Shown here piece after piece: positions 39,001 to 51,000 of a stretch of 64,000 nt of DNA (positions are counted from its first letter, which is position 1; each line of letters starts with the position of its first letter). A program made the position numbers. This stretch comes from an uncultured Spirochaetota bacterium (GTDB taxonomy: Bacteria; Spirochaetota; Brevinematia; Brevinematales; JAOACQ01), in contig CAWIGG010000003.1 of the NCBI GenBank assembly GCA_963835575.1, forward strand, positions 268,480 to 332,479. Reading direction: 5' to 3'.

Positions 39001-42000
39001 TCAAAATCTATAATCACATCATTATTACTGACCATCATCGCCGAATTATATCCCTGTATAAACACACTATGCGGATTTCCAGACATCAGCTTGCTTTCGG
39101 GATCAGTCAGGTTGGTGAATTCTTCGTCTGTCTTTTCCCCTCTCTCTACCTGTTTTTTGTATTCATCGATTTGGTTCAAAACACTATCGTAAATCTTTTT
39201 CCGCCTTGATACCCGCTTCTTCTCCGCTTCGTAATAAGGCTGCTCCAGCTTGCCTTCCCGGTAAGATTCTTCCAGTTCCAGGTCTTGTTTCACAATCTTT
39301 TCCGCCATCTTCTGGTAAGTGTCCATCAGCTTCCGGGTATGTTTCTTTCCCACATTCTTATTCTTACTCGCGTAGGCCTTGATCTTTGTGCCGTCACCCA
39401 CTACCATGTCCCAATCTATAGACCCCATTTCGTTGAGTATATATAAAAGCTGGCTGAACAACTCCTCGATCTTTTCCTGAAAAAGTACCTTGAACTCGCA
39501 AATTACCGAATGGTCAATTTTCAGCCGGTTTGAAACATACATAAACCCAATGTGTTTTTTCAGCAAATCTTCTATCTTTCGGCTGATACGATTTCCCGTA
39601 ATGTAACCGTAGAGTACCGCACAGATCACATCCCGAGGATTTTTAATCTCTCTGCCTCTATGGTCGTTCTTATAGTAAGCCGCGAAATCCTCCAGTTTAA
39701 TACGGTTTTTGATGAATTCTTTTAGTATAAATTCTCTGGAATTCTCATCAAACTGCTCGCCTATATTGATCGCGAGGAACTCACCCTGCTCCAGGCTGTT
39801 CTTTTCAAATCTTGCCATCTTTTTCTCCCGTTTTATTTTAACGGGAACCCTGCCGTATGTCCATGAAGCATGTTATAAAAACCGACAGGCAATATCGGCA
39901 AAAGAATGCCTGAGGTCGCTGTCAAGCCCCGCGATAATGCTTTTAATGCCGAGGTAGTAGGAATGCATGCCGGCTTCAAAAAGCTTTTTTTCCAGATATT
40001 TAGCTACCTCCCGTTTACCGGCGCCCCTTTCGCCGGTTATGAGCACAAATTTGGACTTATGTGAATTTTTTATTTCCCTCTCCGCGGTTTTGATAAAACT
40101 GAAATCCCAGACCCTTTCCCTGTCTTTAATATATTCCTCTATGAAAAGAGAGCCGTCTGTTCTGCTTTTTATTATTACTCCGGCGCCGCATATTTCATAA
40201 TTATCGATGATAACGAACCGGCCGGTGGACTCTATAGCCTGCGCCGTATCGAAGGCGAACGGTTTATCCGCTTCAAGGACGCATTCCGATACGTCATATC
40301 TGTCTATATGGTCTTTATTCTCAAGCTCCGTCAGTTCGGATGAGTCAATGATATTAATTATTTCTCTCAATTGAACAAGGATTTTGGCCGTTCCGATTTT
40401 AGCGATATATTTTTTCCCCCTGACGAGAGGAATATTTCCCATCCAGAAGAGGGTGGCCTCTATTTTTCTGCCGACCTGCGGGTAATTCTTCTCTGCTTTC
40501 CCGGCCATAATTTCTCCGGGCTTGATATATAAGTCGTCTTCCAGAGTAAATCCGCAGCTTACGCCTTCTTGAATGGTTCCAGCCGGGTTGAACTCGATCG
40601 TTTTGATCCTGGATTTTTTGTTCGAGGGGAAAAAAACAACTTCATCTCCTTCGGAAATGCCGCCGCAGGCTACCTGCCCGGCAATGATGCGCCGTGTATC
40701 CTCCCCGTCCGTAAATTTATAAACATCCTGGACGGGAAACCGGAAAGGCTTTTTTTCCTCTTTTGCCTGCTCCTTAAAACCGTCTATTTGTTCAATGACC
40801 GTCGGGCCGCTGAACCACCCGAGATTTGCGGAACGGACAGCGATATTTTCTCCATACCGGGCGCAGACCGGGATGAAACTTTCAGCCTTCAGCCCGATCT
40901 TTTCAAGGAATCCGCCGTATTCCTTTACAACGTCCTGGAAACTCTCCCTGCTGTAAGCGGTCAGGTCCATCTTATTGACCAATACGGCGATTTGCTTGAT
41001 CCCCAGGAGGGATATGAGATAGCCATGCCTTTTTGAGTTTTCCTGAATGCCTTCCTGTACATCAATCACAATCAGCGCGGCTGAGGCTTTAGCCGCACCC
41101 GTGATCATATTTTTCAGAAATTCCATATGACCCGGAGCATCGATGATGAGATAGTCCCGCTTCCCTGTTTTAAAGAAAACACGGCAGGTATCGATGGTAA
41201 TCCCCTGCGATTGTTCTTCCTTGAGCGAATCAAGCAGAAAGGCATATTCAAAATTTTTCGCGTTCTTCTCGCAATAAGCCCGGATGTTTTCGAGTTTTCC
41301 TTCCGGCAGGGAATGCGTATCCGCCAATAGTCTTCCTATTATACTGCTTTTACCATGATCGACATGCCCTGTAATGACGATATTAAACTGTTCTTTATTA
41401 TTCAAGCTGTGCTCCTAATCTCAGTCTGTATTACATATAGCCGTCGCGGCGGAGAGTCTCGAGAGTGCCGCCATCCTCTTTGTCCTGCTCTCTTCCCGAA
41501 CGCTCAGCGACATTTGACAGCCGTCCGCTCTTCAATTCATCTATGACTGCCTCAATGGTTGAAGCTTCCGAATCAATCGGCTTTGTACAGGGATAGCAGC
41601 CGAGAGAACGGTAGCGTTTTCCATTTCCCTGATTCAGATACAATTTAATAAAAGGAATATTATCCCGCTTTATATATTCCCAGACATCAAGCTCAGTCCA
41701 GTCCAGGAGCGGATGGATCCGGATATGGCTTCCCGGCGGAAAATCAGTATTATAATAATGCCAGAGCTCCGGCGGCTGATCTCCGATATTCCACACGCTT
41801 GCTTCCGACCTGGGGGAGAAATATCTCTCTTTCGAACGGCTCCCCTCCTCATCGGCCCTGATGCCTACTATCACACCCTGGAAAGGGTCTTTCCGCAGGT
41901 CCGGTTCATATTTTCCCGTATTCAGGTTCATTTTGTACCGGGGCCATTCCCCGGAGAGAGTGTGCCTGAGGGCCTCGCTTTTCAAACTTTTACAGCATGC

Positions 42001-48000: not shown

Positions 48001-51000
48001 TTTTTTCGGATCTGTCATATTAATCTCCTTTTACTTCTTTAAATCGCAGGCAGCCTGTTCTTCGTCATGGAGTTGTGCGATGGCCGGTTTTAATCCGCAG
48101 ACCGGACATTCCGGATTTTTCTTTAATTTTACTTTCCTGAAATCCATAGTTTTGGCATTCAAAATCAGAAGCTGATTATAAAGGATTTCCCCGATTCCCA
48201 GGATATACTTTAGGGCTTCCGTCGCCTGTATGGTGCCCAGAATTCCGGCTACGGCCCCTAATACTCCCGCCTGTGAACATGTCGGAACGGCATTCAAAGG
48301 AGGCGGGGATGTAAAAACACAGCGGTAGCATGCCGTCTCACGCGGCTTTACAGTCATTGTCTGGCCTTCAAACCGGAGGATGCCTCCGTGCGAAAAAGGC
48401 TTGTTTTCAAAGACACAGGCGTCATTGATCAGGAATTTTGAAGCGAAATTATCGGTTCCGTCAATAATAAAATCATATTCCCGGATAATACCCCTGATAT
48501 TCGAGGCTTCCAAATGCTCCGCATAAGTATTAATTCCAATACCGGGGTTCAATGCATGCATTTTGTTTTTTGCGGACTCGACTTTCAATTTACCGACATC
48601 ACCGGTAAAATGTATAATCTGCCTTTGAAGATTGGACAGGTCAACCCTGTCGTAATCGGCTATGCCGATGGTACCGACGCCGGCAGCGGAAAGATAGAGT
48701 GCGGCAGGCGCCCCCAGCCCGCCGGCGCCTATGATCAGGACTTTACTGTTCAGGATCTTTTCCTGGCCTTCAATACCGACGTCTTTCAATAATATATGCC
48801 TAGAATACCTTTCCAGCTGTTCATCATTAAAATCCATTTCTTTCACTCCTCATAAAGTGATATTGTAAAATTACCCTGTTTATAGAGTTTTGAAAGCATC
48901 CTCTATATCCTCTATCAAATCTTCCCTATCCTCTATACCGGCCGATAACCGGAGCATATTTTCCGGAACTCCCAATTCTTTTTTTGTTTCAGGTGGAAAC
49001 TCGCAATAAATCGTTGATGACGGGTGGATTATCAATGATTTATTATCATTGATATTGGTCGCCCGGCGAATTATTTTAAGGTTATTCATAAACCGGAAGC
49101 ATTTTTCTTTCGATTCCAGTTCAAACGTAAGAATACCGCCGAACTGGCCGTTAAAAAACTTCTTCGCATAAGCATGATAGGGGCTTCTTTCAAGTCCCGG
49201 ATAATTCACCCGCTTCACTTCCGGATGATTATGTAAGTATAATGCCAGGTCCATCGCGTTTTGAGAACTTCTGTCCATCCTGAGAGCGATGGTTTCAAGG
49301 CCGAGAGTGTGTAGATACGCATTCTGGGCGGACATGCATGCTCCAAGATTGCGGTAAACTTCCCTGCGGAGTTTCATTAAAAAAGTAGATTGACCAAATT
49401 TTTTATAATCATTCTGAAGCTTTTCAATTTTACTCCAGTTGAAGTTCCCATAGTCAATAATAATTCCCCCCACCGACGTGGCTCCTCCCGACATATACTT
49501 TGTTGAGGATATCACGTCAATATTCACACCGTAATCCTTTGAATGGAACAGGTAAGGCGTGCTGGCCGTGTTATCCGCTATGAGAAGAATCCCATGTTTT
49601 TCCGCGGTCCTGCCCAAAGCTTCAATATCAAAAACCGCAAGCTGGGGATTGGTTATGGTTTCGATAAATATTGCCCTTGTTGTTTCATCTATTGATCTTT
49701 CAACCTCCTCCGGTTTATGGAAATCGGCATATTTAACTTTCAGGCCCCAGGGCTTCAGTGTATTTTCCATAAGTGAATAAGTATTACCGAAGATGTATTT
49801 AGAGGTTAAAATCGTATCATTAGTTTGAGCTAAAGCAAGGATCGTATTGGCAATCGCCGCCATACCGGAAGAAAGCGCGATAGATCCGAAGCCGCCGGCT
49901 AAAAAATTGATCTTCTGTTCAAATTCAGCAACTGTCGGGTTGGAAATCCTCGAATAGGAATGGGCTGATTTCTTACCCAAAAAAGCGTTTTCAATATCTT
50001 CGGCGTTTTCAAACTCAAAAGCGGCGCAATCATAAATCGGTGTTCTTAAGGCTTTGTGTGCATCATTATTTTTATTAGGCCCATGGATAGCCTTTGTCAT
50101 AAATCCTTTTATTTTAAAATCACCTCCACCCATGAAATAGAGAATATCGATTATATCGTTCTCTTTCAAATAAGTGTCGATAAACCTTTCTTTTTCGATA
50201 TAAGCACCATTCAACTGAACCGAAACCATATCCGGCGATTCTACTTTCCGGATCCGGATAACTTCAGCTATACTGAGATTACTGCTTTCAAAGCTTTGAC
50301 GTTCTCCATTAATAATAATATTCATAACAACTCCTTTATATCATACTATTCCTATCTATTTAGTATGAAATATTATAGAAAATCATTTTATTTTTGTCAA
50401 TAATAGACATACAATTATTTATTTGCTGAATATCAGGGAAGTTGACTATTTAATTTTATGATGATATTATAGGATTAATATATTAACCAGGAATATCCAT
50501 GCTCAGAATAATATCAAGAAGATCATCTCTTGCCCTGAAACAGGTTGAAGAAGTATTTTCTCTATTAGGCAAAAAAGAATACCGTCTCATCACACTGGAA
50601 ACATACGGTGACAGGCATAAAGAAATATCGCTTCTTGAAAACACCATGCAGGACATTTTTACACACGAACTGGATGAAGCATTACTTAAAGATAAAGCGG
50701 ATGCGGCTATCCATTCCGCAAAGGATTTACCATATCCGCTGCCGGAAGGATTGGAAATTGTCGCGCTGACAGAGCCTCTTGACAACACGGATTCTCTTGT
50801 CAGTTTTAATCATAAAAAACTGAGGGAATTACCGGATGGAACGGTTCTCGGGGTGAGTTCCCCGATAAGAAAAAAATATATAAAGCAGGTCCGTCCTGAC
50901 ATTAAAACCGTCAGCATTCGCGGGACAATTGAAGAGAGGCTTCATTTAATAGAAGAAGGATTGATCGGCGGTACTATCGTCGCCACATGTGCCCTTATCC

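Follow-up and report, generated by a model that had tools for sequence, protein, structure and literature searches.

Described protein-thiocarboxylate and sulfur-carrier systems

Wolinella succinogenes reportedly makes methionine by a thiocarboxylate pathway, credited to Krishnamoorthy and Begley in 2011 and comprising HcyS, HcyF, HcyD, MetY and a sulfite reductase. HcyS is said to carry a one-residue tail after its Gly-Gly, and HcyD to release homocysteine from the carrier. For sulfite reduction by DsrAB and DsrC, Santos et al. reportedly described in 2015 a protein trisulfide on two DsrC cysteines.

A passage of a 2021 paper (PMC8191291), which refers to the structure of Tran et al. (2011), states that W. 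succinogenes MetY uses the thiocarboxylate of a carrier protein. The corresponding neighbourhood of ThiS, JAB, E1, SirA, sulfite reductase and sulfhydrylase genes is row 4e in Table 1 of Iyer, Burroughs and Aravind (2006; PMC1779556); passages of that paper predict SirA (TusA) to be rhodanese-like, give the E1 of this neighbourhood as always devoid of a rhodanese domain, and mention ThiS fused to the C terminus of sulfite reductase in actinobacteria. Carriers made in one chain with their enzyme are described for molybdopterin synthase: in Deinococcus, according to a passage of PMC8832034, the JAMM peptidase DR0402 cuts the linear MoaD-MoaE fusion DR2607, a cut required for activity. JAMM-activated linear MoaD-MoaE fusions are also reported for M. 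tuberculosis MoaX and for Haloferax SAMP1-MoaE with HvJAMM1 (PMC8832034, PMC4326299), and the title of the MoaX paper (PMC4326299) likewise states that JAMM cleavage is required for activity.

Overall organization of the sulfur gene row

The window analysed, a stretch of 64,000 nucleotides from an uncultured Spirochaetota bacterium, had been described in an earlier note as holding a row of sulfur genes, and the open reading frames were recovered at the expected positions on the minus strand with the Pfam domains described (Table 1). Catalytic motifs of the encoded enzymes are intact. The row comprises ThiS::MetY, ThiF, a DsrE2-like protein, TusA, a JAB peptidase, a sulfite reductase::TusA fusion, a DUF2061 protein, a porin-like protein, APS reductase, CysD and CysN, and has siroheme genes on both flanks. 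A promoter-like TTGACA-17-TATAAT element precedes the first ATG by about 47 bases; no Rfam family, riboswitches included, was found between positions 36000 and 55000. The position of the DUF2061 gene is conserved in two relatives (G022 and G025), and its neighbour, which gave no match in a family search, encodes a product that appears porin-like from its sequence.

Table 1 Features of the sulfur gene row and its surroundings (window positions)
Feature	Position	Strand	Basis or remark
Promoter-like site TTGACA-17-TATAAT	50372..50400	-	12/12 matches, consensus match only
Sulfur gene row, ThiS::MetY to CysN	39873-50325	-	one minus-strand row
ThiS::MetY fusion gene, 481 aa	48880..50325	-	Pfam ThiS and Cys_Met_Meta_PP, open frame throughout
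ThiS-like carrier domain, aa 1-68, ending YFMGGG	50122..50325	-	Pfam ThiS, aa 6-68
Linker DFKIKGF, aa 69-75, directly behind GGG, where JAB is proposed to cut	50101..50121	-	translation
MetY domain, aa 76-481	48883..50100	-	Cys_Met_Meta_PP
ThiF/MoeB-type E1-like adenylyltransferase, 271 aa	48031..48846	-	ThiF E 7e-83
DsrE2-like protein, 160 aa, cysteine in YACEMS	47536..48018	-	Pfam DrsE_2 E 1e-41
Stand-alone TusA, 74 aa, Cys14 in HCPM	47267..47491	-	TusA E 5e-19
JAB/JAMM metallopeptidase, 133 aa	46869..47270	-	Prok-JAB E 1.6e-24; desampylase model E 4e-21
Sulfite reductase::TusA, likely start ATG at 46876	44489..46912	-	NIR_SIR and NIR_SIR_ferr, two stretches each; TusA
HEPN-like helical bundle, core-TusA linker, opening with Cys583 (807-aa numbering)	44801..45166	-	structure model
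TusA domain of the reductase, aa 741-807, Cys747 in ACPMNFV	44492..44692	-	Pfam TusA E 3.8e-18
DUF2061 small membrane protein	44236..44478	-	Pfam
Signal-peptide, strand-rich, outer-membrane-porin-like protein	43178..44293	-	likely start near 44197
APS reductase, thioredoxin-dependent type	42340..43065	-	PAPS_reduct; TIGR02055 254.3 bits, cut-off 235.3
CysD, sulfate adenylyltransferase small subunit	41431..42318	-	CysD-type PAPS_reduct
CysN and first third of an APS-kinase-like domain	39873..41405	-	GTP_EFTU; NF004035 positions 21-513 of 632
IS1182-family insertion sequence, not part of the pathway	38220..39892	-	transposase 38352-39818, 11-base inverted repeats
Displaced C-terminal remainder of the APS-kinase-like domain	37933..38205	-	read from sequence

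The ThiS::MetY fusion and the proposed pathway

The first gene of the row encodes a ThiS-like carrier and MetY in a single open frame with both Pfam domains, as the earlier note had read it: ThiS matches residues 6-68 (E 4.8e-7, 30.7 bits against a cut-off of 22.5) and Cys_Met_Meta_PP residues 77-479 (E 4.1e-111). The junction translates as ...DILYFMGGG-DFKIKGF-MTKAIHG... without a stop, and all 481 codons are open; the methionine that follows the linker is residue 76, and not 77 as first counted. The ThiS match, which had looked weak (E 9e-7), is real, as testified by stand-alone orthologues, 48-52% identical, encoded directly upstream of MetY in relatives. A genome search found no other carrier of this subfamily. 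In the MetY part, the PLP-lysine motif S273-x-T275-K276 is invariant throughout the MetY alignment (A1). When compared with solved structures, this part matches 3ri6 best, at 433 bits, the next sulfhydrylase reaching 322; we take 3ri6 to be the thiocarboxylate-dependent MetY of Wolinella.

Common to the row and the Wolinella pathway are a ThiS-like carrier with residues past Gly-Gly, a rhodanese-free E1-like adenylyltransferase, a JAMM peptidase, a MetY whose nearest solved relative is 3ri6, and sulfate-reduction genes in the same cluster. Unlike the one-residue tail reported for HcyS, the carrier here continues in frame into MetY. Further features of the row, set against the reported description of the Wolinella pathway, are free TusA, a DsrE2-like protein and a reductase that bears a TusA domain behind a HEPN-like linker. 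The operon type has already been worked out in another bacterium, and the variant part is the carrier made in one piece with its enzyme. The gene set equals that of neighbourhood 4e in Table 1 of Iyer et al. (2006; PMC1779556), which, with the closeness to 3ri6, upholds the protein-thiocarboxylate route to homocysteine, coupled to sulfate reduction, that was proposed for the row. The passages of that paper on 4e mention neither the ThiS-sulfhydrylase nor the TusA-reductase fusion, and the word 'polyprotein' is absent from its text (PMC1779556).

We favor, with a probability of about 0.7, a sulfate-assimilation operon of the Wolinella type that makes homocysteine via a protein thiocarboxylate, the carrier being cut from MetY by the JAB peptidase. 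The thiocarboxylate chemistry would proceed as follows. CysD and CysN would convert sulfate to APS, APS reductase would yield sulfite, and the siroheme sulfite reductase would reduce it. The carrier, translated as residues 1-68 of one chain with MetY, would be released by a JAB cut after the Gly run, giving a carrier with a Gly-Gly carboxylate and a mature MetY. ThiF would adenylate the carrier, reduced sulfur would turn the adenylate into a thiocarboxylate, MetY would join this to O-acetylhomoserine, and the JAB peptidase would release homocysteine, as reported for HcyD. Sulfur would reach the adenylated carrier from the reductase over a cysteine-based relay, formed by the reductase's own TusA domain together with free TusA and the DsrE2-like protein, and this relay would take the place of the rhodanese domain missing from ThiF.

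The sulfite reductase::TusA fusion and the candidate relay

ThiF carries CxxC zinc motifs and the cysteine loop PTCSQAGVLG, and domain searches found no rhodanese domain in it. The DsrE2-like protein reaches only 67 bits against the NCBIfam DsrE2 model, whose cut-off is 210. The reductase, the only NIR_SIR protein found in a genome search, is made up of a two-module siroheme/4Fe-4S core of the assimilatory NirA/CysI type, a helical linker and the C-terminal TusA domain. Its frame as listed opens at a GTG that precedes the likely ATG (residue 13) by 12 codons; the TusA domain noted earlier at residues 729-795 is the same as residues 741-807 here, counted from the GTG. The linker is modeled with pLDDT above 85 over most of its length and superposes on 2hsb (Z 11.4, rmsd 2.9, 112 aligned residues; VIA-align), and Cys583 and Cys747 are invariant in all 69 reductase::TusA sequences compared. 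As in the DsrAB-DsrC system, a small sulfur-handling domain with cysteines is linked to a siroheme sulfite reductase, and two cysteines of the appended part are invariant here; unlike in that system, the appended part is a HEPN-like bundle plus TusA in place of a DsrC fold, on an assimilatory core instead of dissimilatory DsrAB.

The fusion had been described as common, and this holds: a search with the C-terminal 268 residues returned 483 proteins at E <= 1e-5, and all of the 120 listed carry both TusA and reductase domains. It is also present in the five relatives (5/5) that have a reductase in range, whereas in Syntrophia-type MAGs, Methanoculleus palmolei and Bacillota a different, small reductase gene is followed by a separate TusA gene. 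A cysteine-based relay of the TusA domain, free TusA and the DsrE2-like protein is the most likely arrangement, and we infer the direction and chemical form of the sulfur on it. In one relative with the fused carrier gene (G012), the cluster lacks the free TusA and DsrE2-like genes, so both are dispensable there. The genome that carries the row also encodes CysK and a second MetY, both of the sulfide type, and with a single sulfite reductase this suggests that the enzyme can still release sulfide; a hand-over on TusA without free sulfide is put forward as a hypothesis.

TusA and the DsrE2-like protein might instead bring cysteine-desulfurase persulfide to the adenylated carrier, the TusA domain of the reductase serving, for example, in regulation or in sulfite or thiosulfate handling. 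TusA is known as the persulfide acceptor from IscS, on the persulfide route used in tRNA thiolation and molybdopterin synthesis. The modeled TusA domain superposes equally well on TusA of the IscS-TusA complex (3lvj_C) and on YeeD of the thiosulfate-uptake complex (8j4c_B), with Z 13.6 for each, and DsrE3A and TusA homologues of Metallosphaera are reported to carry thiosulfonate. We consider this alternative unlikely: a need for cysteine would make the way from sulfate to homocysteine circular unless cysteine is made separately, the row holds no cysteine desulfurase gene by Pfam domains, and across phyla TusA occurs fused with, or next to, reductases of two unrelated architectures, which argues for a functional link to the reductase.

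Recurrence of the carrier fusion and state of the operon

ThiS and the MetY family are fused in 48 of the 120 best database matches, query included, in proteins of 475-493 aa. The earlier note had put the polyprotein form forward as what would be new; the 47 other fused clusters among these matches, some of them named in NCBI records, speak against this. The motif YF[MI]GGG is kept in 48/48 fused proteins, with Y63, F64, G66, G67 and G68 invariant; the linker after GGG varies from 0 to about 20 residues without conservation, and identity between the MetY parts has fallen to 51-59%. A tree of the 120 MetY domains requires at least 12 fusion or fission state changes, at least seven of them forced by well-supported branches, and entire clades, of 29 proteins and more, have retained the fused state: the fusion is a variant that has arisen many times. 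It is in the minority all the same, with two cases in 401 sampled genomes of the phylum, none among 21 adjacent carrier-MetY pairs of named genomes and two among 28 such pairs on metagenome contigs.

The APS reductase bears the CC...CxxC motif of APS-type Fe-S enzymes and ECGLH. The CysN gene, last of the row, is cut short by an IS1182-family element present in the genome as 24 full-length, identical copies; family searches gave no match for the displaced remainder. Of the four other genomes in the genus, three gave no match to a carrier-junction query at E <= 1e-8. The insertion copies, the broken last gene and these negative results indicate that the operon may be decaying.

Within such a decaying operon, the fusion might have come about recently through loss of a stop codon, as a neutral or harmful accident without functional meaning. 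The insertion inside the cysN-cysC gene fits this, as do the unfused nearest relatives of the window's MetY, which falls in a supported nine-row clade with seven rows unfused, and the lineages in which ThiS and MetY share a frame across one stop (TAA in G018, TGA in G187, TAG in G068, also L020, L021 and L024), so that one substitution would yield the fusion. We nevertheless regard an accident as improbable, since the 481 codons are open with the family's invariant residues kept, the other genes of the row are intact, an APS-reductase route has no need for APS kinase, and the persistence of fusions in whole clades indicates that the fused state is viable.

Carrier tails and the JAB metallopeptidase

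The JAB protein, the only Prok-JAB member found in a genome search, has the upstream Glu22 and the motif H-S-H-x7-S-x2-D. The carriers of seven relatives end in GGGK, GGGRF, GGGAS and similar or are fused. A tail follows GGG in 20 of the 21 adjacent pairs of named genomes, the remaining carrier ending at GGG, as does one in the 28 pairs on metagenome contigs. Unfused carriers are thus nearly always tailed, and their tails also need trimming. A JAB gene occurs in the four fused contexts examined (the window, G012, L102 and L127), beside 20 of the 21 named-genome pairs (the sole miss lies at a contig end) and at each of the 19 metagenome loci that have 1 kb or more of downstream sequence.

That ThiS stays uncut, as a docking or regulatory ubiquitin-like domain on a MetY using the reductase's free sulfide, would accord with the sulfide-type CysK and second MetY and with the passage in Iyer et al. 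(2006; PMC1779556) by which ubiquitin-like domains fused to ThiF are probably not sulfur carriers, but is quite improbable given a Gly run invariant in 48/48 despite the MetY divergence and free linker, a complete ThiF whose only substrate of this subfamily in the genome would not exist, and an interleaving of fused and unfused forms on the MetY tree that argues for one shared function.

That the JAB peptidase instead cuts the carrier off MetY, as the earlier note had proposed, is the inference suggested by the invariant GGG, the tails, the JAB gene in 4/4 fused contexts, the lack of another carrier of this type in the genome and the JAMM precedent. As in the MoaD-MoaE fusions, a ubiquitin-like sulfur carrier stands N-terminal in one chain with a thiocarboxylate-using enzyme, and a JAMM cut at Gly-Gly, needed there, is likewise proposed here. 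The partner differs, being a PLP-dependent sulfhydrylase of amino-acid synthesis as opposed to molybdopterin synthase, and here the peptidase probably serves in a further step as well, the product release reported for HcyD, unlike in the MoaD-MoaE systems. The presence of the JAB gene fits polyprotein processing without proving it, since the peptidase is needed with or without gene fusion. MetY could also be supplied without cleavage through an internal start at Met76. Because carriers of this family are as a rule synthesized with an extension past GGG for the peptidase to remove, a whole downstream enzyme in its stead would be tolerated, in keeping with the recurrence of the fusion.

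Gene content and layout of the operon

The row comprises 11 ORFs arranged head to tail on the minus strand from 50325 to 39873, most junctions being gaps of 0-45 bases or short overlaps, and the gene products were assigned by Pfam and NCBIfam profiles. A domain-based earlier note had described this row, and its account stands in all particulars of ORF position and domain content, apart from minor points of numbering. The SirA/TusA, sulfite reductase, APS/PAPS reductase and ATP sulfurylase genes lie together, in an order that matches that in relatives. The adenylyltransferase consists of a ThiF domain (aa 14-249) and no further domain. 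The DrsE_2-family protein is named DsrE2-like only, because it scores 67.4 bits against NCBIfam DsrE2 (NF047629), below the equivalog cut-off of 210, and belongs to the broader Pfam family. An alternative genetic code was dropped, as there is not a single in-frame stop anywhere in the row.

Table. Features of the operon and its surroundings, in window coordinates.
Feature	Coordinates	Strand	Assignment
HemC-CobA-HemD triple fusion, 646 aa	50499-52439	(+)	
ThiS::MetY, 481 aa	48880-50325	(-)	ThiS aa 6-68, E 4.8e-7; Cys_Met_Meta_PP aa 77-479, E 4.1e-111
ThiF/MoeB-type adenylyltransferase, 271 aa, without rhodanese domain	48031-48846	(-)	Pfam/NCBIfam
DrsE_2-family protein (DsrE2-like)	47536-48018	(-)	Pfam DrsE_2, 142.8 bits
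Free TusA, 74 aa	47267-47491	(-)	Pfam/NCBIfam
Prok-JAB peptidase, 133 aa	46869-47270	(-)	Prok-JAB, E 1.6e-24
Sulfite/nitrite-reductase-type protein::TusA	44489-46912	(-)	Two NIR_SIR_ferr/NIR_SIR modules and C-terminal TusA
HEPN-like linker of the reductase::TusA protein	44801-45166	(-)	Residues 45-166 of the C-terminal model
DUF2061 protein	44236-44478	(-)	Pfam/NCBIfam
Signal-peptide protein, 371 aa	43178-44293	(-)	No family (Pfam/NCBIfam)
APS reductase	42340-43065	(-)	TIGR02055, 254.3 bits (cut-off 235.3)
CysD	41431-42318	(-)	Pfam/NCBIfam
CysN	39873-41405	(-)	Pfam/NCBIfam
IS1182-family element	~38220-39892		11-base inverted repeats
Transposase of the element	38352-39818		
Displaced remainder of the APS-kinase-like domain	37933-38205		

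Siroheme-synthesis genes flank the row on either side, with glutamyl-tRNA reductase and precorrin-2 dehydrogenase downstream and, on the opposite strand upstream, a HemC-CobA-HemD fusion, HemB and HemL. The triple fusion (porphobilinogen deaminase, uroporphyrinogen methyltransferase and uroporphyrinogen-III synthase) is divergent from the operon and is also found in G012, another genome of the phylum; together with HemB, HemL, HemA and precorrin-2 dehydrogenase it completes the siroheme route around the reductase. Between the DUF2061 and APS reductase genes sits a gene, missing at that operon position in the relatives examined, for a strand-rich, porin-like protein that has a signal peptide, matches no family and, judged by its sequence, may be a sulfate anion channel. 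Rfam gave zero matches between 36000 and 55000 at E <= 0.1, and no riboswitch of the SAM or any other class is recognisable upstream.

Correspondence with the thiocarboxylate route to homocysteine

We read the operon as a Wolinella-type thiocarboxylate route to homocysteine, with a probability of roughly 85%. In W. succinogenes, Krishnamoorthy and Begley reportedly found in 2011 that the carrier HcyS loses a C-terminal alanine to the peptidase HcyD and is adenylated by the E1-like HcyF; bisulfide from the sulfite reductase is then said to convert it to the thiocarboxylate, which MetY adds to O-acetylhomoserine before HcyD frees homocysteine. Against the solved structure 3ri6, which we take to be the Wolinella enzyme, the MetY portion of the window's protein reaches 433 bits, and against the next sulfhydrylase 322 bits; this similarity alone does not fix donor specificity. 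The relevant passages of a 2021 paper state that Wolinella MetY uses a carrier-protein thiocarboxylate, not bisulfide (PMC8191291).

This gene neighbourhood was described, as 4e, by Iyer, Burroughs and Aravind in 2006, with W. succinogenes among the examples; in their passages on it, the E1 always lacks a rhodanese domain, SirA is always present and is predicted to replace that domain, and the final sulfur acceptor is probably a ThiS-like protein (PMC1779556). The window shares with neighbourhood 4e a ThiS/MoaD-like carrier with a C-terminal Gly-Gly motif, an E1-like adenylyltransferase devoid of a C-terminal rhodanese domain, a JAB/JAMM metallopeptidase in the cluster, and the set of SirA/TusA, sulfite reductase, APS/PAPS reductase and ATP sulfurylase. 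Pathway and neighbourhood are already known, as is, for molybdopterin synthase, a carrier-enzyme fusion that is released by a JAMM peptidase.

A second set of sulfur genes lies elsewhere in the window's genome (G000:C4:517932-521183, that is, locus L100:6932-10183 and neighbours). It encodes an Rrf2 regulator, a methyltransferase, CysK, a 432-aa MetY about 40% identical to that of the window, a 71-aa ThiS whose very last residues are GGG and a short ThiF of 179 aa, with no JAB gene nearby. The order MetY followed by a GGG-ending ThiS recurs in many relatives, and the ThiS of this second set may serve either MetY or thiamine synthesis.

The ThiS::MetY fusion is widespread and has arisen repeatedly

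The frame of the window's ThiS::MetY gene is open from residue 1 to residue 481 and its junction reads ...DILYFMGGG-DFKIKGF-MTKAIHG..., with no stop; the carrier domain thus ends YFMGGG, and orthologous free carriers are 48-52% identical to it. When the full-length protein was searched against a large protein collection, 48 of the 120 best hits, query included, contained both the ThiS and the MetY family; these proteins of 475-493 aa span the full query at 51-59% identity. In their alignment Y63, F64, G66, G67 and G68 are invariant (48/48), and the linker from GGG to the MetY N-terminus is unconserved and measures 0 to about 20 residues. The fusion reported in the earlier note is therefore genuine, with its open frame across the GGG junction and 47 other fused clusters; a sequencing error at the junction was dropped because those 47 clusters are independent. 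The suggestion that the polyprotein form is new is not supported as far as sequence data go, since the form is abundant in the databases; a literature search covering few subscription journals found no paper describing a ThiS::MetY fusion. Some of the fused proteins are NCBI records of Omnitrophica MAGs labelled just 'sulfur carrier protein ThiS', and such labels, like 'TusA family protein' on the fused reductases, conceal both enzymes.

Other searches were less suited to finding the fusion. A word-based search with residues 1-110 returned the query only; the method needs shared 5-residue words, so this is no sign of rarity. A search of cluster representatives with residues 1-120 yielded mostly free carriers, and fusions only as short fragments at contig ends (P0011, P0012 and P0016), full-length fusions probably being hidden behind unfused cluster representatives. 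The 255-aa fused carrier-MetY fragment P0010 has a degenerate Gly run, FFMGEEN, and a long linker, and could represent either a carrier domain in decay or a wrongly called frame.

Among genomes, fusions are the minority form. Of the 401 genomes sampled from the phylum, just two, G012 and that of the window, align with the junction query over its whole length and with no stop, and three others (G018, G187 and G068) have carrier and metY in the same frame with one stop between them. A carrier gene directly upstream of MetY was present in 21 of 80 loci from named-species genomes; none of the 21 pairs is fused and four are in frame with intervening stops, a single one in L020, L021 and L024 and several in L023. 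The metagenome loci contain the pair in 28 of 80 cases, of which two are fused (L102 and L127), five are in frame with stops (one stop in L101, L106 and L114, three in L112 and L172) and 21 have the two genes out of frame with each other. The in-frame single-stop lineages use TAA, TGA or TAG depending on the genome, and one substitution would fuse carrier and metY; stop-codon read-through is testable in all these single-stop pairs.

A tree was built from the MetY domains (last 400 residues, carrier part omitted) of the 120 best-hit proteins, where 'unfused' denotes a protein without a carrier domain, the genes upstream of those rows being outside the data. It requires at least 12 changes between the fused and unfused states, at least seven of them forced by well-supported branches, which indicates that the fusion was gained or undone many times. 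The window's protein belongs to a supported clade of nine rows with seven unfused ones, and this placement suggests that its fusion is probably a separate event of its own.

Probable release of the carrier by the JAB peptidase

A carrier can be adenylated and thiocarboxylated only at a free C-terminal glycine, so the fused domain must be cut out if it works as a carrier. The JAB peptidase of the row retains an intact metal site, with Glu22 and the motif H-S-H-x7-S-x2-D. A JAB gene accompanies the carrier in 20 of the 21 named-genome loci, the exception being a contig end, in all 19 metagenome loci that extend at least 1 kb downstream, and in each of the four contexts seen to have the fusion (the window, G012, L102 and L127). 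This presence is compatible with both the fused and the free form, since the pathway needs a peptidase in any case. The window's genome encodes one Prok-JAB protein, one other ThiS, which is of a different type, and no further carrier of this subfamily, so the ThiF of the cluster would be without a substrate unless the fused domain is released. Taken together, the sequence data make it likely that the JAB peptidase frees the carrier from ThiS::MetY.

The free carriers of relatives end in GGGK, GGGRF, GGGAS, GGGTCERIYN or GGGADERIYD. Tails of 1 to about 20 residues occur in 20 of the 21 named-genome pairs, the remaining carrier ending at GGG, as does one of the 26 unfused metagenome carriers. 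As nearly all of them have tails after GGG, these carriers are normally made as precursors that need trimming. A peptidase that strips whatever follows the glycines would tolerate a whole downstream enzyme as a tail; loss of the stop between adjacent, sometimes in-frame, genes would then be nearly neutral, which would account for the repeated fusions. The fusion, in turn, offers an explanation for the tails on these carriers.

A comparable arrangement is found in molybdopterin synthesis. The JAMM peptidase DR0402 of Deinococcus cuts a linear MoaD-MoaE fusion and exposes the C-terminal glycine, a cleavage required for activity according to the pertinent parts of the paper (PMC8832034), and the title of a paper on M. 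tuberculosis MoaX likewise reports cleavage of the fusion by a peptidase (PMC4326299). The window's protein resembles the linear MoaD-MoaE fusions in that a single open frame encodes both carrier and partner enzyme, with the carrier at the N-terminus, the Gly-Gly at the junction is held under divergence (48/48 in the window's family, at 51-59% identity), and a JAMM peptidase is encoded with the fusion (4/4 fused contexts). ThiS::MetY, widespread, repeatedly evolved and with a strictly kept Gly run, offers a natural case for testing whether JAMM peptidases mature sulfur-carrier polyproteins in pathways other than molybdopterin synthesis.

The sulfur cluster of G018 encodes a 411-aa protein (L014:6698-7933) in which an FTR1-type iron-permease membrane domain is followed C-terminally by the JAB peptidase, and a cation-efflux gene adjoins the gene of this fusion.

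Architecture of the sulfite reductase::TusA protein

The last 268 residues of the reductase::TusA protein matched 483 proteins at E <= 1e-5, and all 120 among the matches listed contain both TusA and reductase domains, in agreement with the earlier note, which had called this fusion widespread. Their source names include Bacteroidales, Omnitrophota, Spirochaetia and Deltaproteobacteria, and most of these listed matches are annotated 'sulfurtransferase TusA family protein'. Like ThiS::MetY, this architecture, an assimilatory sulfite reductase joined to TusA by a HEPN-like domain that bears a cysteine, is abundant in the databases. A literature search covering few subscription journals found no paper on the fusion; the TusA review by Tanabe, Leimkuhler and Dahl (2019) may note it.

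All 69 full-length members that were aligned keep the siroheme/cluster cysteines. Two further cysteines are invariant in 69/69: Cys735 within ACPMNFV of TusA and Cys571 within E-C-x-x-G of the segment between reductase core and TusA, numbered from the likely ATG (795 aa) and equivalent to Cys747 and Cys583, respectively, of the ORF as listed (807 aa). The free TusA keeps its cysteine as well, in the motif HCPM.

The C-terminal 269 residues were modelled with AlphaFold, using the 69-member alignment, with a mean pLDDT of 81. The last 76 residues of the model superpose on TusA of the IscS-TusA complex (3lvj_C) with a Z score of 13.6 and an rmsd of 1.6 over 76 aligned residues, and YeeD gives the same Z score of 13.6. 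In this superposition the fused TusA adopts a two-layer alpha/beta fold, and both TusA copies keep the C-P-x cysteine. Residues 45-166 of the model fold as a helical bundle that is matched best by HEPN domains (2hsb, Z 11.4, rmsd 2.9 over 112 aligned residues; other HEPN chains at Z 9-10), although Z scores below about 13 in helical bundles may reflect a mere common arrangement. HEPN domains are four-helix up-down bundles with an R-x4-6-H motif in the nuclease members, and this motif is not visible in the linker sequence. Against solved structures, Foldseek was confident for the TusA part only, its HEPN matches to the linker being weak; a broader comparison lifted these to Z 9-11, still within the uncertain range for helical bundles. 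DsrC adopts its own fold, with two cysteines on a C-terminal arm; no DsrC chain was among the matches listed for the C-terminal model, and the two invariant cysteines of the reductase::TusA protein lie in different domains. A complex prediction of the reductase core with its own TusA domain scored 0.00 and carries no weight either way.

The association of reductase and TusA also exists without fusion. Similar clusters in Syntrophia-type MAGs, several Bacillota and the archaeon Methanoculleus palmolei encode a small reductase with one module (about 290 aa), and a separate TusA gene comes immediately after it (L034, L036, L037, L084, L094, L074, L080, L082, L089 and L090); the Clostridia-type loci have a differing gene order, with ThiS after TusA. 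Stygiobacter electus has a large reductase followed by a separate TusA that is closer to the fused domain than to the free TusA. That TusA is fused in some lineages and adjacent in others argues for a working partnership with the reductase. The sulfite reductase of this pathway is thus tied to TusA across many phyla, and the fused form has an extra domain with an invariant cysteine.

Possible transfer of sulfur from the reductase to the carrier

We tentatively consider, as a possibility somewhat short of even odds, that the TusA domain, the free TusA and the DsrE2-like protein relay sulfur from the reductase to the adenylated carrier. Neither a free TusA gene nor a DsrE2-like one is present in the cluster of G012, which has both the fused carrier gene and the fused reductase.

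It is improbable that no free sulfide is formed, as an analogy with DsrAB-DsrC would imply. The reductase is the only NIR_SIR protein in the window's genome, yet CysK and a second MetY are encoded elsewhere, so the reductase may still have to supply free sulfide. We give similarly little credence to the most far-reaching version of the relay, in which no sulfide is released and Cys583, which opens the HEPN-like linker, together with Cys747 of TusA would draw sulfur off the siroheme site as a persulfide or trisulfide bound to the protein. The free TusA and the DsrE2-like protein would hand this sulfur on to the carrier activated by ThiF, with the second cysteine resolving the acyl-disulfide. 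In this version sulfate sulfur would reach homocysteine wholly on proteins, the reductase::TusA protein being the assimilatory counterpart of DsrAB-DsrC and the carrier being born within the enzyme that consumes it. In a speculative closed form of the relay, a disulfide between the two invariant cysteines would capture sulfide as a TusA persulfide, which would attack the adenylated carrier; resolution of the acyl-disulfide by the second cysteine would yield the thiocarboxylate and regenerate the disulfide. The operon offers a clean, testable system for the exit of sulfur from an assimilatory sulfite reductase to an adenylated carrier, for which few recombinant proteins are needed.

Distribution in the genus and an insertion in cysN

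Three of the other four congeneric genomes lack a match to the carrier-junction query; the distribution of the operon is thus patchy even in close kin.

In the window, an IS1182-family element lies inside the APS-kinase-like C-terminal domain of CysN (cysN-cysC), the remainder of which is displaced. The APS reductase carries the motifs KLCCEV and GCLPCT (CC...CxxC) together with ECGLH, and CC...CxxC and ECGLH mark the APS-type as opposed to the PAPS-type reductase. With an APS-type reductase the kinase should be dispensable, and a block of PAPS-dependent reduction by the broken kinase was dropped on the same ground. The window's genome contains 24 full-length copies of the element at about 100% identity, which point to a recent burst.
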